A DNA stretch of 64,000 nt from a virus, in the IMG/VR virus record IMGVR_UViG_3300035698_006641, positions 1 through 64,000 of that record; one strand, 5' to 3'. Shown here one piece after another: positions 14,164-47,609 of this stretch. Position numbers and translations under genes: made by a program. Below the pieces are notes generated by a model. The model did not search any database, had not been told where the DNA came from, and saw only the letters and a list, made by a program, of their open reading frames with translations. How positions within the stretch are numbered: the first letter of the stretch is position 1; the number at the start of each line of letters is the position of its first letter.

Positions 14164-14193
14164 TGTTATTCCAACATATGGGTCGTAGTTAAG
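14164..14193 (-). promoter_or_regulatory. Phage-specific promoter motif, copy A
   Basis: CTTAA-CTACGACCCATATG-TTGGAATAACA; 41/45 nt identical to 42613-42657. Confidence 0.65.
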
Positions 14194-14695
14194 TTGATCC
14201 AACCGGAATATATATAGATTATAAGGCAAAAATAACTATCTATTTTAAAGCTTACCGGTAAGGGAAAATAGAGGTAATTACATTTTTGTAACATTAGTTG
14301 TAACTATGGTAGCGTACCCTTACTTACACAAGAGAAAATTGGACCAAAGTGGTAGGTTCGTCAAAAAGGGCACTATTTACTATGTTACCCCTAAAGGGGT
14401 GTATTATTCTCTTTTTTAAGTACAGTTATTTGGGGAGTCTCTACTCTCTCCCCCAGAATTAAATAAACCAGAAAATTAACAACCTACGAAAGTAACAGAT
14501 AAATTACGTATAGGTTACTAATTAGGTCCGGTTTAGTAGGAGGGCCGTGAAGGAGTTTAGGACCCCTAGGTGACCATTGACCCATATGAAACTAACAAAC
14601 AAGCCACAGAGGCTCTCAGACACCTTTAAGGGGGTCTCTGGCATTTTGACAGAACGTTGTTGTGTAATAGGATCCGATTATTGTAAAATTCAGTA

Positions 14696-15052
14696 ATGAA
14701 CAAAGAATCACGTACACTATTTCTTAGGTCAGCGGAGTGGAAGGCCTTTAGACAAACCTTGCTAGAAGACCGCGGTGCGGTGTGTACATTATGTGGGCAG
14801 GAGTATTACGGTAAAAACAAAAAGAATCTTCATATACATCACCTAGACCCGAACCCAGAACACTACGACATCTTAGACCCGGTTAAGTTTACTATCTTAT
14901 GCAAACAATGTCATAAATTCTGGCATAAGATTCTTCGTAGGAAAAATAGCAAAAGCCCACTAAGAAATAGTGGGCTCTGGGAACTTATGCTTAAAGCTAT
15001 TACACCTATGTCTAGGACCCTAGTAGAAGACACGGATAGTTGTTTTAATTAA
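14696..15052 (+). CDS. HNH endonuclease
   Basis: SAEWKAFR...CTLCG...LHIHH...LCKQCH. Confidence 0.85.
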   Translation: MNKESRTLFLRSAEWKAFRQTLLEDRGAVCTLCGQEYYGKNKKNLHIHHLDPNPEHYDILDPVKFTILCKQCHKFWHKILRRKNSKSPLRNSGLWELMLKAITPMSRTLVEDTDSCFN

Positions 15053-15058
15053 ATATGC

Positions 15059-15646
15059 TCAAGACGGATTCTCTAACATGTTCAAATGGAAGCCATCTTT
15101 GTCGTAAATTCCGTACTTCTCTTTTGCTTTCGGGGATGCGGCGCCCCAGATCGGGGAAACAAATACGCTAGGCCTATTTTGTAAATCAAAGGTGTCGTCA
15201 CAAGCCTCTGAGCAAAACCATTTATCCGGGTCATCCCTACGTGATTTAGTAACGAATCCAAATGGCTTTTGGTATTTCGATCCTAGACGTGGACACCACT
15301 TTTTCAGAACCTCTTCAGTCGTTGGTGCGTTTTGTACTCTTCGTACCACAATAACGCTCTCTTCTCTAGCTGTGTCCGCAAACACGGTTGGAACGACTCC
15401 GAACCCCTCTAAGGCGTGAATCTCTGTCACAGGCAATCCCGTAGACTTATGGATAAATACGTGAGAAAGGTGGGACGATCCAGTATCCGGATCTGCCTGA
15501 GTCCACCAAATGATTACTTTTGAAAATAGAGAATTGGTTCGACAATAACATCCAAGCATTACTTCATAGTCGTCTGGGTGGAGACGAACGTCGTCTAGTG
15601 CTAGCATTCCGGCATCAATGATCTTTTTCTTTTCGGCTTTATTCAT
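15059..15646 (-). CDS. Permuted papain-like (YiiX/NlpC-P60) peptidase or amidase
   Basis: SHLSHV precedes KWFCSE (His-before-Cys order). Confidence 0.7.
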   Translation of the reverse strand: MNKAEKKKIIDAGMLALDDVRLHPDDYEVMLGCYCRTNSLFSKVIIWWTQADPDTGSSHLSHVFIHKSTGLPVTEIHALEGFGVVPTVFADTAREESVIVVRRVQNAPTTEEVLKKWCPRLGSKYQKPFGFVTKSRRDDPDKWFCSEACDDTFDLQNRPSVFVSPIWGAASPKAKEKYGIYDKDGFHLNMLENPS

Positions 15647-15807
15647 TCCGCGAACTTCCCGGTTTTAACTGCTCCACCCTTCTCTCCCTCGACACTGACA
15701 TTGCCGCCTGTCTTATAAACAGCGTACAAGCCAAGACCGATAACCATTCCGACACAAATCATGACGGTTGTGCATTGGATGATGGCTATGATTATAATCT
15801 CACTCAT
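15643..15807 (-). CDS. Small membrane protein (54 aa)
   Basis: Manual translation MSEIIIIAIIQCTTVMICVGMVIGLGLYAVYK...; AAGGA RBS. Confidence 0.6.
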   Translation of the reverse strand: MSEIIIIAIIQCTTVMICVGMVIGLGLYAVYKTGGNVSVEGEKGGAVKTGKFAE

Positions 15808-45181: not shown

Positions 45182-45635
45182 TATCCATTTTTTTAATCAA
45201 TGGATGGCGTGCTTTGTTTTGAAAGTAATTAATTGGAGCAAGGTCACTGTAGTCTAGACTATCAGGCTTCTTATAACCTGATGGGAGTGTTCCAGCCCCC
45301 TGTACAGATCGTAGATACTTTTTAATATACCCTGGGCTATTCTCTTGATATTTAAGTTGGCTTGTTGGTAACAAAAGTCCCTTTGAAAAACCGTACCGTC
45401 CAATATTTTTAGCTACTCCGGTATTAGACAAAGCTCCGAATATGAAAGGAGAAGCAGCACCAACCAAACCCATGAGTGCCGGATTAACTCCGTACCCTTG
45501 TTTCTTAGCCATCCCTCCGGCCAAAGCCAATCCTCCACCGGCTAAGAGACTTATCCCTAGCTCTTTCAAGATAGGGTACTCTCTAAGGAGAGACTGCATT
45601 TTACTCATTGTAGATTCAGTGACTGGTTGATTCAT
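45129..45635 (-). CDS. Putative virion protein
   Basis: Gly-rich hydrophobic segments. Confidence 0.6.
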   Translation of the reverse strand: MNQPVTESTMSKMQSLLREYPILKELGISLLAGGGLALAGGMAKKQGYGVNPALMGLVGAASPFIFGALSNTGVAKNIGRYGFSKGLLLPTSQLKYQENSPGYIKKYLRSVQGAGTLPSGYKKPDSLDYSDLAPINYFQNKARHPLIKKMDNAKADEKALAHSGGGYV

Positions 45636-47443
45636 TAAACGGGTCCTCCTCCTGCAAGCTGCTGTGTGGCTTGACTTTTAACTTGTCCTCTAATTTGTTC
45701 CATTTTAGCTTTAACCAATGCATGAAGTTCTTGATCGCTTTCACGTAGATTCTTCATTTCAGTCATTCTCGGACCATGTGGCATAGATACCAATTGCTGG
45801 GCCAGCTGATCAACTTGTTGAGCACGCTCAGTAACAGATCCAGACGGGCCTATATTCAGGGCTGACTGGGGTCCTGCAACAGGCCCACCAGCTGCTCCAG
45901 CAGCCATACTAGGATCACCTACAGCTCCCGCAGGCATCATACCTTGTCCGGCCAGCATACCTTGTACCTGCATTTGCTCATCAGTTTCCTTTTGAAAATC
46001 AGCTTGTGCTTCTTGTTCGGCCCGCATTTCATTAATAATCTGCTCCTGTTCTTCTTGAGGATCGATTCCCCAAGTACCAAAAGCAGTTCTCTTTGATACC
46101 ATGTTCGATGAGGCTAATTGTAATAGAAGCTGTCTTCGTTCCAAGTCATCCGCTAGTGTTACTTTTTTAAATCCAATTGAGGTCGGCGTTTCCCAGTTCA
46201 TGTACTTCGTAGTGGACTGAACTACAAACTTTAGCCACCCATTAAGAAAACTGGTTATCTCCGGCCATGACTGTTGCAAAACTCTAAGAGCCATAGGAGC
46301 AGCTTGCAAAGATATAGAACCCCTGTATAGCTCTGGAGCGATTCCAATACCGGATAAGAGTTCATCGATACCTTGCATGATGAGCTCTGGAGTAGCCATT
46401 GTACCTTCGCCGCTAATAGCCTGATAGTTCATAGGTATCGGGGAGAAGTTCCAAGATGTAGGGTTTTCTCTATGCCTGGCAACCATGTTGGCTACGGAGC
46501 TATTAACTAACTCGCTATCAACCGATGCCATCCATGGACCCTGGTTGTCTGTAGGCTGAGATGAAGGAGACAGCAGTCGAAATGGGACCATGTAGTCCTG
46601 TGCTAACGAAGAGTTAGCTTTCTTAAGTGTCTGTACATAAAATGCTTGAGAGAAATTAGACATGATTTTAGGCATACCATATCCCTGTAGATTAACAGAA
46701 GCTAGTGTATCCTCGGCAGCATAATGTACGAAATCATTGTTGAATAGGAAAAGTTTATCCTCAGCAATAGTAGACAGGAACTCCAACGGTAAGTCCTTCA
46801 CTATGAATTGGTCTCCTGCCTTAACTTTCTGTCTGAGGTCCACGGGTATATCCCAGTAGACATCGGCGCGTCCGGAGTACGGGTGATAGCGTACAGATAT
46901 GTCGTAAGGGGACCAACGTTGCATTGTGATTCGGTCTTTATCAAAAGACTTGCGGTCAACAACTTTCATCTTTCCTTTAAACCCACACTGACATGCAGCT
47001 ACAAAATCAGAACCACCTTCGAAGGACCAAGACATATTATCTATGTATCGTTCTGAGTGGCATTTTGGGCATCTAAGGAATCTATTAAACGGGAATATCA
47101 TAGAGCTAGCGGTCATCCCACAGGAAATCAAATCATCACCAACAGCAGCAGCATTGCGTGTTACATTGAATGTTGATGTTAGATACTCCTGTAAGTCCTT
47201 ACGTTGCTCTTCAGCTTGAGTAAACTCAGGCTCGGTTATGAAGTACCTAATGATACGTTCAGCCGCGGAACGATAGACTCCGTGCTTTAACCAGAACATG
47301 GTGCATAAATCCAAGGTCTCTTTTAGAGAATTTGGCAGCATAGCACTTCCAATATCTAAAAAAGGGGACGGGTATTCCCCCTCCTTATTGGAGAGGCCCG
47401 CAGAAATTCCATTCTTAAAAATCGTATCAGTTACTGCGGCCAT
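45635..47443 (-). CDS. Probable portal protein with Zn-ribbon insertion
   Basis: 602 aa; GYGMPKI, GIAPEL and SKRTAF portal-like segments; CPKC...CQCG insert; Gln/Gly/Pro-rich tail. Confidence 0.55.
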   Translation of the reverse strand: MAAVTDTIFKNGISAGLSNKEGEYPSPFLDIGSAMLPNSLKETLDLCTMFWLKHGVYRSAAERIIRYFITEPEFTQAEEQRKDLQEYLTSTFNVTRNAAAVGDDLISCGMTASSMIFPFNRFLRCPKCHSERYIDNMSWSFEGGSDFVAACQCGFKGKMKVVDRKSFDKDRITMQRWSPYDISVRYHPYSGRADVYWDIPVDLRQKVKAGDQFIVKDLPLEFLSTIAEDKLFLFNNDFVHYAAEDTLASVNLQGYGMPKIMSNFSQAFYVQTLKKANSSLAQDYMVPFRLLSPSSQPTDNQGPWMASVDSELVNSSVANMVARHRENPTSWNFSPIPMNYQAISGEGTMATPELIMQGIDELLSGIGIAPELYRGSISLQAAPMALRVLQQSWPEITSFLNGWLKFVVQSTTKYMNWETPTSIGFKKVTLADDLERRQLLLQLASSNMVSKRTAFGTWGIDPQEEQEQIINEMRAEQEAQADFQKETDEQMQVQGMLAGQGMMPAGAVGDPSMAAGAAGGPVAGPQSALNIGPSGSVTERAQQVDQLAQQLVSMPHGPRMTEMKNLRESDQELHALVKAKMEQIRGQVKSQATQQLAGGGPV

Positions 47444-47573
47444 TAGAATCCTTTTTTTCTTTTAGTTTCAAGCAGTCGCCACATAGGGCTTCCTTGTTCC
47501 TAATCTTAACAGAAGCTGCTCCGCATATTACACACGGAGTCAGCCCTGGTTTAATTTTTCCTATTTTTATCAC
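47427..47573 (-). CDS. Small Zn-finger protein (48 aa)
   Basis: Manual translation from GTG: ...TPCVICG...ALCGDCLK...; leaderless after promoter. Confidence 0.55.
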   Translation of the reverse strand: MIKIGKIKPGLTPCVICGAASVKIRNKEALCGDCLKLKEKKDSNGRSN

Positions 47574-47580
47574 AGAATCA

Positions 47581-47609
47581 ATAATAGCGTCTGTTCAATA
47601 ATAAGGCAA
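47581..47609 (-). promoter_or_regulatory. sigma70-type promoter for the portal operon
   Basis: TTGCCT-N17-TATTAT; GTG 7 nt downstream. Confidence 0.55.

Follow-up and report, generated by a model that had tools for sequence, protein, structure and literature searches.

The window, the 64,000-nt stretch of viral DNA that we analyzed, belongs to a 96.8-kb record that CheckV rates as 66% complete. Its minus strand carries a single-chain RNA polymerase (RNAP) gene, a portal gene, and four copies, A to D, of the bipartite motif CTTAA-N14-YTGGHATAAYA. The features that bear on these copies are as follows.

14150-14194, minus: copy A (motif at 14164-14193), a 45-nt repeat unit with CTTAAC, an 8-bp hairpin CATATGTT-GGAAT-AACATATG that overlaps TGGAATAAC, and then ATGTAGGGAACC
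19682-19711, minus: copy C, CTTAAT-N13-CTTGGTATAATA, with a leader hairpin after a perfect extended -10 (TGnTATAAT)
19751-19780, minus: copy D, CTTAAT-N13-ACTGGCATAATA, 69 nt upstream of C and 28 nt past the RNAP stop codon
19808-24667, minus: single-chain beta + beta'-N RNAP, 1619 aa, ortholog of Arash Gp206
42593-42620, minus: terminator-form hairpin after B, GGGAACC-N7-GGTTCCC and then a T6 run
42613-42657, minus: copy B (motif at 42627-42656), second example of the 45-nt unit of A
45635-47443, minus: portal protein, homologous to Arash Gp204 and the D69 portal

Elsewhere, the genome is rich in mobile elements, such as an intein with a LAGLIDADG endonuclease in the NrdD gene. A separate and unrelated 87-nt hairpin cassette is present in two copies, at 34717-34803 and 35424-35510.

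The four CTTAA copies

A pattern search of the 64,000-nt window returned exactly four matches to CTTAA-N14-YTGGHATAAYA, all on the minus strand, which is the gene strand. There were no matches in 100 shuffles, and the other 32.8 kb of the record contained no further match. The four copies of the preliminary description, with their identical internal spacing, were thus recovered, with none elsewhere in the record; its coordinates held for two of them and began 1 base off for the other two (19682 and 19751, given there as 19681 and 19750). We concluded that the four-copy motif is real. Because the pattern was drawn up after the sites had been seen, we also performed a less circular offset test on TGG[ACT]ATAA[CT] sites. 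There are nine of these (eight with A and B counted once), and CTTAA stands at the same offset in 3/8 (P = 0.0028 versus random genomic flanks). The sites that share CTTAA are precisely those at gene boundaries.

Each cassette has, in order, CTTAAy (-20 to -15, counted from the TG), a spacer of 16 bp, a TGG extended -10, the hexamer hATAAy, and a leader hairpin. TGG directly precedes the hexamer in 4/4 copies, which places TG at -15/-14 as an extended -10 requires. A fold calculation found a hairpin 3' of all four copies (mean z, -2.4). The hexamers are TATAAT in C and CATAAT in D, with A at -11 and T at -7, and AATAAC in A and B, with C at -7. Despite lacking T at both -12 and -7, A and B have the upstream box and the -10 box at the same spacing. 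Aligned with TTGACA at 16 bp, the upstream boxes read TTAACT or TTAATT (4/6 and 3/6 matches), and they do not resemble the TTGACA-type -35 element, which is optional in extended -10 promoters.

We found that A and B are a true repeat, matching at 41/45 positions between 14150-14194 and 42613-42657 (self-BLAST E = 3e-8), as had been described. Both continue as ATGTAGGG, which resembles the ATGTAA(G)GGG found 3' of many sites in the related phages D69 and Arash. Copy A lies about 50 nt upstream of gene 13515-14138 and downstream of a terminator at 14978-14952. At B, ORF 42652-43137, with which the portal/head block ends, has the TAA of CTTAA as its stop codon. A terminator-shaped hairpin follows at about +16 relative to B. 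Its 7- to 8-bp stem (5 to 6 G-C pairs), its 5- to 7-nt loop, and the A and T6 after it are those of an intrinsic terminator, located at the end of the portal/head block. The fold energy is -13.3 kcal/mol locally and -15.6 kcal/mol for a 76-nt fold. This hairpin would double as the leader hairpin of any transcript initiated at B.

The repeat starts exactly at a stop codon and extends into the terminator stem, and copy A lacks the 3' half of the stem that is present at B. These observations are also consistent with A and B being a duplicated gene-end/hairpin/terminator unit left by recombination, like the T4-type promoter/stem-loop cassettes, rather than promoters. According to this model, their likeness to C and D would be partly due to chance, and C and D may be decayed or unused. 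The repetition of the unrelated 87-nt hairpin cassette and the abundance of mobile elements, including the NrdD intein and its LAGLIDADG endonuclease, fit such an origin. We consider it improbable, however, given the outcome of the CTTAA offset test (P = 0.0028). In addition, 4/4 copies lie on the gene strand at unit boundaries that need a restart of transcription, as A does past the terminator at 14978-14952, and the layout is common to about 30 clean sites in each relative's genome.

Inverted repeats overlap or flank the boxes. ATGTT-GGAAT-AACAT is found in A and B, and TTGGAATGCATTCCAA lies just upstream of D, at 19803-19788; A, B, and the latter palindrome all contain TTGGAAT. These palindromes could be binding sites for a phage regulator instead of polymerase signals, which we regard as very unlikely. 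TTGGAAT is a common 7-mer, with about 12 occurrences expected by arithmetic from genome size (an expectation, not a count), and it is absent from C and D. Moreover, no regulator gene was identified, and the shared boxes are not themselves palindromic.

The preliminary description held that each copy points into early or counter-defense genes. Phosphoesterases, a NinI-like phosphatase, and a peptidase were recovered as family matches; most of the downstream genes have no family, so the claim could be checked only in part.

Sites upstream of the RNAP and portal operons

Additional features precede the RNAP and portal genes.

24679-25041, minus: HAD-like ORF, 120 aa, DLDAT motif
25049-25077, minus: promoter-like site before the HAD-like and RNAP genes, TTGACT-17-(TGG)TAGTAT
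25101-25128, minus: strong intrinsic terminator just upstream of that site, 12-bp stem, T8
25922-25929, minus: TAAAATAG box (CTAAAATAG), about 100 nt upstream of gene 25163-25828
47427-47573, minus: mini-ORF, 48 aa, CxxC..CxxC, overlapping the portal start codon
47611-47620, minus: GCTAAAATAG box ahead of the mini-ORF and the portal operon

The RNAP has about 30% identity to Arash Gp206 over about 90% of its length. The site at 25077-25049, located 3' of the terminator at 25128-25101, has the second-highest sigma70 score in the genome and is the only TTGnnn site that stands out. The start codon of the HAD-like ORF (ATG 25041) is 7 nt after TAGTAT with no Shine-Dalgarno sequence, making it a candidate leaderless start. 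The mini-ORF begins at GTG 47573, 7 nt after TATTAT. The geometry reported earlier, two starts 7 nt past a -10, was therefore found at both places.

A host-type promoter class, TTGnnn-N17/18-TAnnnT, had been proposed for these operons. Such sites exist, and 25077-25049 stands out among them; as a class, they occur at chance level. We found 27 sigma70-like sites in the 13- to 26.5-kb region, versus 27.1 expected, with no intergenic enrichment and no strand enrichment in the window phage genome. The suggestion that the RNAP is made late found no basis in the window phage, in which the RNAP promoter is simply a top-ranking (second) sigma70-like site.

A different box is shared among the phages. 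GCTAAAAT precedes the portal operon in the window phage, D69, and Arash alike. CTAAAATAG boxes lie before the portal operon (there GGCTAAAATAG) and before gene 25163-25828. CTAAAATAG is the window form of a second motif, CTAAAATATA, which precedes D69 plus-strand genes, including the portal-RNAP operon, and is also found before the Arash portal gene.

Most phage early promoters are read by the host primary-sigma holoenzyme. Judged by their letters, C (TGGTATAAT) and D (TGGCATAAT) would suit the host primary sigma equally well, as good extended -10 promoters. C has the full TGnTATAAT and D, as TGnCATAAT, has 5/6 hexamer positions; both have A at -11 and T at -7. It is possible, though we doubt it, that C and D are ordinary tandem extended -10 promoters for the host enzyme and that A and B are weak or silent, serving mainly as a repeated terminator or recombination cassette. 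Consistently with this, the TGG extension is also present at the RNAP-operon promoter (TTGACT-17-TGGTAGTAT) and at 25909-25881 (TGGTAACAT), the copies are few and are missed by matrices built from the relatives, and B sits on a stop codon ahead of a terminator. This model leaves unexplained why three independent copies keep CTTAA at one offset (P = 0.0028) if a -35 element is either dispensable or TTGACA-like. It also does not account for A and B, in which AATAAC lacks T at -12 and -7 and the spacing of the two boxes is still the same. The lack of intergenic or strand enrichment of generic sigma70 signals in the genome also argues against it. In a genome scan, copies A to D were not among the top 60 sigma70 matrix scores.

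Promoter-like cassettes in Arash and D69

The only cultured relatives are Salmonella phage Arash (OQ632216) and Vibrio phage D69 (OZ195729). We found that the dominant intergenic motif in both is TnCAnAA-N13-TG(G/T)TATAAGTAA-ATGTAA-hairpin, with about 30 clean copies in each. In Arash, the top intergenic motif reads TGGTATAAGTAA (37 sites at ≤2 mismatches); in D69, it reads TGTTATAAGTAA (42 sites at the same cutoff). Nearly all of the sites are on one strand, mostly 25 to 60 nt ahead of gene starts, with the upstream box at -20 to -14 and a conserved downstream TGTA. The bipartite motif is confined to the arm opposite the RNAP/portal arm (in Arash, the structural arm); the RNAP gene lies within the portal operon in both phages and, in Arash, on the structural arm. 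A ATAAGTAA core also lies ahead of genes in AT-rich marine relatives (10 forward versus 3 reverse). We derived this motif in the present analysis and found no publication that describes it in Arash or D69.

G is at -7 in 83% and 96% of the clean Arash and D69 sites, respectively, which argues against reading by the sigma70 of their hosts. In the window, G is at -7 in 0/4 copies, which do not have the TG(G/T)TATAAGTAA core. Matrices built from Arash and D69 did not place A to D among their top matches, ranking them below chance hits, and no site in the window genome scored above shuffled controls. The sole perfect match in the window genome to the D69-type class I 12-mer is CGTTATAAGTAA (28035-28046, minus strand), with the Nampt stop codon inside it and a hairpin after it. 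In the window phage, the EM motif search, which does find the Arash and D69 motif in those two genomes, returned only ribosome-binding sites. EM and k-mer searches together found no widespread motif in its genome, in which 4 copies at 3 places fall short of the many copies of the Arash/D69 class. Searches for related loci found no close relatives of the window locus.

The window copies share with the Arash/D69 motif the position and spacing of the boxes, TGn, the invariant ATAA core, a downstream ATGTA(A)GGG (in A and B) and hairpin, and placement on the gene strand at unit boundaries. The phages themselves share an orthologous single-chain RNAP and portal. In contrast, the window hexamers end in T or C instead of G and have no TAA tail, the upstream box is CTTAAy, and there are 4 copies versus about 30.

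Arash and D69 each encode two sigma-like proteins, one RpoD-like (regions 2 to 4) and one of the Gp10 type. In the Arash virion proteome, the RNAP ortholog Gp206 (3516 spectra), the beta' protein Gp216 (1210 spectra), and the sigma factor Gp10 (467 spectra) are among the most abundant proteins (PMC10585845). No sigma, beta'-C, or Gp217-like helicase gene was found in the 96.8-kb record. Because Arash and D69 share the layout and encode sigma factors, and because Arash virions are rich in RNAP, beta', and sigma, it is plausible by analogy that a packaged phage holoenzyme would read such boxes. The preliminary description had a packaged RNAP acting on its own promoters. This agrees with the Arash virion proteins and the arm-confined motif at the level of the lineage. 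It does not extend to assigning the enzyme in the window phage, in which the relatives' matrices miss A to D and the fragment has no sigma or beta'-C gene.

Proposed reading and comparison with known systems

We propose, with a probability of roughly 0.45, that A to D are sigma-type bipartite promoter cassettes, a local version of those in Arash and D69, most likely read by a phage-encoded holoenzyme. They would be the window phage's form of the promoter-hairpin cassettes that dominate the nonstructural arm of Arash and D69. Their reader would be the single-chain beta-beta' RNAP with a beta'-C partner and a phage sigma70-family factor, with the host primary sigma the less likely reader. A and B would additionally be a repeated composite promoter/stem-loop unit, which at B would close the head-gene operon. 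The firing of A to D, the enzyme that reads them, and the timing are what we infer here. CTTAA is unlike TTGACA, and a -35 element is dispensable in an extended -10 promoter, so that the conservation of CTTAA suggests a different region 4 specificity. The idea of an uncharacterized promoter code was not upheld, as the geometry is that of the sigma70 family and the relatives carry sigma70-family genes. Only tentatively do we extend this to a self-contained bacterial-type program in Arash, D69, and the window phage. Packaged RNAP with its own sigma70-family factor might start early transcription at CTTAAy-N13-yTGGhATAAy, and the second box, GCTAAAAT(A), might direct portal and late genes via a second phage sigma or the host enzyme.

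According to current reviews, RNAP-encoding phages lack sigma homologs (PMC7824862, PMC13282480). If a phage holoenzyme does read these boxes, the virus would initiate transcription by the full bacterial logic with parts of its own: core enzyme, sigma, and -35/extended -10/-10 boxes. It would inform the coevolution of promoter specificity and sigma, offer orthogonal transcription parts, and fill a gap in reviews, which place phages that encode an RNAP (no sigma) apart from those that encode a sigma (no RNAP). For annotation, the cassettes provide testable start signals in a phage group with genes of mostly unknown function. The lineage is large; at E ≤ 1e-20, the fused RNAP gave >1,200 homologs, most of them from metagenomic contigs, with lengths reaching about 210 kb.

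Bacterial sigma70-family extended -10 promoters have TGnTATAAT with or without TTGACA and need no -35 box. The window copies are like them in having TG two bases before the hexamer, A at -11, and a 16-bp spacer to the upstream box and differ in that this box is CTTAAy, not TTGACA, and that AATAAC in A and B lacks T at -12 and -7.

In T4-type promoter-early stem-loop cassettes (PeSLs), a promoter and an overlapping or adjacent stem-loop are repeated from the upstream stop codon, flanking small genes of unknown function (PMC2839356, PMC4122927). The A/B unit is similarly composite. It is repeated, runs from a stop codon, and has a hairpin that overlaps the -10 element, as PeSLs do; at B, it continues into a terminator. 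Unlike PeSLs, it is present in two copies only, with no sign of recombination or mini-circles, and PeSL promoters match the host sigma70 consensus.

Phage N4 has hairpin promoters and a single-subunit enzyme. The N4 virion RNAP and those of phiKZ and AR9 (PMC7598289) resemble the system proposed here in that a packaged enzyme is proposed for early transcription and that few to moderate numbers of conserved sites lie near -10. In phiKZ and AR9, each motif is one AT-rich block, and the enzymes work without a sigma70-family factor (PMC7824862, PMC13282480), whereas the window layout is bipartite and sigma-like.

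Occurrence and anatomy of copies A to D

Four copies of a bipartite motif, CTTAA-N14-YTGGHATAAYA, had been noted in the preliminary description. We recovered these four matches, all on the minus strand, and found none in the rest of the record.

Copies A to D and the adjacent RNA polymerase (RNAP) gene
14164-14193, minus strand: copy A, hexamer AATAAC
42627-42656, minus strand: copy B, hexamer AATAAC
19682-19711, minus strand: copy C, hexamer TATAAT
19751-19780, minus strand: copy D, hexamer CATAAT
19808-24667, minus strand: single-chain RNAP ORF, 1619 aa

The pattern had been drawn from the sites themselves, and we added an independent offset test. 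CTTAA stood at the identical offset in three of eight independent TGG[ACT]ATAA[CT] sites (P = 0.0028 versus random genomic flanks). We therefore regard the bipartite element with its fixed spacing as real. The repeat shared by A and B was likewise confirmed (45 nt, 41/45 identical). Read as promoters, A to D consist of TTAAyt, a 16-bp spacer, TGG, and the hexamer, a layout of sigma70-family geometry.

A hairpin lies downstream of each of the four copies. The hexamers of A and B overlap with an 8-bp hairpin, and ATGTAGGGAACC continues the repeat. The stop codon of the last portal/head-block gene sits within the CTTAA of B. Also at B, GGGAACC starts a hairpin and T6 follows, the form of an intrinsic terminator. 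C and D are in tandem, 28 to 126 nt past the RNAP stop codon, and are followed by ~350 nt of structured noncoding RNA. An exact search of IMG/VR for the A/B core gave no match. The window gave just two tRNAs in Rfam, and the noncoding stretches at 14.1-14.7 and 19.0-19.8 kb had no credible match.

We also observed a perfect 16-nt palindrome, TTGGAATGCATTCCAA (19788-19803), between the RNAP stop codon and copy D; the palindrome has TTGGAAT in common with A and B. Upstream of copy A is a TAAAATAG box (14247), with a perfect TATAAT ~25 nt further on. About 800 nt (14139-14950), from copy A to a minus-strand terminator at 14978-14952, contained no convincing gene and had no Rfam match. A plus-strand ORF (14696-15052) was considered as the mark of a divergent promoter region and was rejected because that terminator lies inside it.

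The polymerase and the promoter-like motifs of cultured relatives

The source record is linear (96,845 bp; 66% complete by CheckV), the window being its initial 64 kb, and almost every gene is on the minus strand. The RNAP fuses beta to the N-terminal half of beta'. This family has >1,200 homologs at E<=1e-20, largely metagenomic and on contigs of up to ~210 kb; the nearest, P0002 to P0006, are 56 to 71% identical. The only cultured relatives found, by both full-length RNAP and portal, were Salmonella phage Arash (OQ632216; 181 kb) and Vibrio phages D69 (OZ195729), D148, and D181 (187 kb). No close relatives were found by DNA search of the phage collection or in IMG/VR, and a metagenome scan returned just 23 to 28% identical relatives, with flanks lacking a portal gene.

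P0002 to P0006 (2331 to 2770 aa; alignment A1) carry additional LAGLIDADG inteins absent from the window RNAP. All six RNAPs in the alignment share an insertion near CFTEDHD...HWSGNS, which may be a mini-intein. An intein carrying a LAGLIDADG endonuclease splits the anaerobic ribonucleotide reductase gene nrdD (51354-54455).

The complete Arash and D69 genomes were the base for comparison. In both, the top intergenic word was TG(G/T)TATAAGTAA, and an EM search recovered this motif (class I). Allowing up to two mismatches, we found 37 sites in Arash and 42 in D69 (~30 clean in each), nearly all on a single strand and mostly 25 to 60 nt ahead of gene starts. Between -20 and -14, these sites show a weak box (TnCAnAA or TnAA..A), and ATGTAA lies on their downstream side. 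Leader hairpins often come next in D69 and are sometimes terminator-like (e.g., at 97472); for this reason, we rejected the idea that the terminator after B rules out promoter use. The -7 position is G in 83% (Arash) and 96% (D69) of clean sites. For sigma70, T at -7 is established, and host sigma70 should disfavor G there. AT-rich marine relatives likewise carry the ATAAGTAA core ahead of genes. D69 has a second box, CTAAAATATA, upstream of plus-strand genes, including the portal-RNAP operon, and GCTAAAAT lies upstream of the portal gene in Arash and the window alike. A literature search found no paper on the Arash/D69 motif.

The plus-strand arm of Arash carries portal, RNAP beta-beta'N, beta'-C, helicase, and structural genes. 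Arash and D69 each encode an RpoD-like sigma (regions 2 to 4) and a Gp10-type second sigma.

Sigma-like genes of the relatives
Arash: 120587-121693 (L042) and 11892-12596
D69: 133187-133963 (L043) and 11004-11675

Two sigma-like genes per relative match the two promoter-like motif classes in these phages. In Arash virions, Gp206, the ortholog of the window RNAP, was the most detected protein, and Gp216 (beta'), Gp10 (sigma), and Gp217 were also detected (PMC10585845).

The proposed host class and other intergenic elements

A second class, of host sigma70-like TTGnnn-N17/18-TAnnnT promoters, had also been proposed. This class did not hold up: we found 27 sites in 13-26.5 kb, versus 27.1 in shuffles, with no intergenic or strand bias, and sigma70 consensus and matrix scans of this genome found no enrichment. 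The exception, and the one convincing sigma70-like site, is TTGACT-17-TGG-TAGTAT at 25077-25049, which has the second-highest rank genome-wide and lies downstream of a strong terminator. The ATG of a HAD-like ORF lies 7 nt past it. GTG 47573, the other candidate for a leaderless start, begins a 48-aa zinc-ribbon-like mini-ORF (47427-47573; CxxC..CxxC). The mini-ORF has no Shine-Dalgarno sequence and overlaps the portal start codon. We rejected a continuum between the two promoter classes: the TGG extension is common to both, yet the upstream boxes differ (CTTAAy versus TTGnnn).

TAAAATA is the top enriched intergenic 7-mer of this genome. TAAAATAG precedes the portal operon and gene 25163-25828 and occurs at four more intergenic sites on the gene strand. 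When the intergenic DNA of this genome was searched by k-mers, mismatch seeds, and EM, only A-rich leaders and ribosome-binding sites emerged. We discarded EM over all upstream regions, which failed even in control genomes. The sole perfect match in this genome to the D69-type promoter 12-mer, CGTTATAAGTAA (28035-28046), is located at the stop codon of Nampt and has a hairpin after it; this could be a chance match or a true lineage-type promoter.

Other repeats were observed. The very start of the record (1-160) holds ~27-nt tandem direct repeats (GGTCACTAATGGC...), candidates for iterons, an origin, or the end of the genome. An 87-nt repeat (34717-34803 and 35424-35510; 99% identity), with the hairpin GCCCTGT..ACAGGGC, then TTAAAATAAT, and small genes downstream, represents a second family of composite intergenic cassettes. 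Further TTAAAATAAT copies lie at 34074 and at 32391, immediately ahead of tRNA-Arg. Outside the window, the whole record has a 59-nt intergenic near-perfect palindrome (67781-67839) and an additional inverted pair (95968-96013 and 96107-96152).

Reading of A to D and comparison with known systems

Copies A to D resemble the Arash/D69 cassettes in box position, spacing, TGn, ATAA, ATGTAGGG (in A and B), and hairpin; they differ in that the window hexamers lack G. The layout match, together with a conserved non-TTGACA box, leads us to favor phage-specific, sigma-dependent reading, and we put the probability that a phage holoenzyme reads A to D at roughly 45%. The missing G counts against this, as do the Arash/D69 matrices, which did not retrieve A to D above shuffles in this genome, the presence of only four copies, and a fragment with no sigma or beta'-C gene. 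It also counts against this that C and D suit the host as extended -10 promoters; we consider reading of A to D by a host primary sigma less likely than reading by a phage holoenzyme. The remaining probability falls to A to D being nonpromoter elements. The preliminary interpretation is partly supported; the full N4-like program, with the RNAP made late, packaged, and reading A to D early, is a rather unlikely subcase of phage-holoenzyme reading.

The virion-RNAP promoters of phiKZ and AR9 are single AT-rich blocks (PMC7598289), and these RNAPs have no sigma homolog (PMC7824862, PMC13282480). A and B are also similar to T4-type PeSL cassettes, in which a promoter and a stem-loop form a composite unit (PMC2839356, PMC4122927). 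The significance of A to D rests mainly on the lineage-level picture; among the systems compared, their closest match is the Arash/D69 motif.
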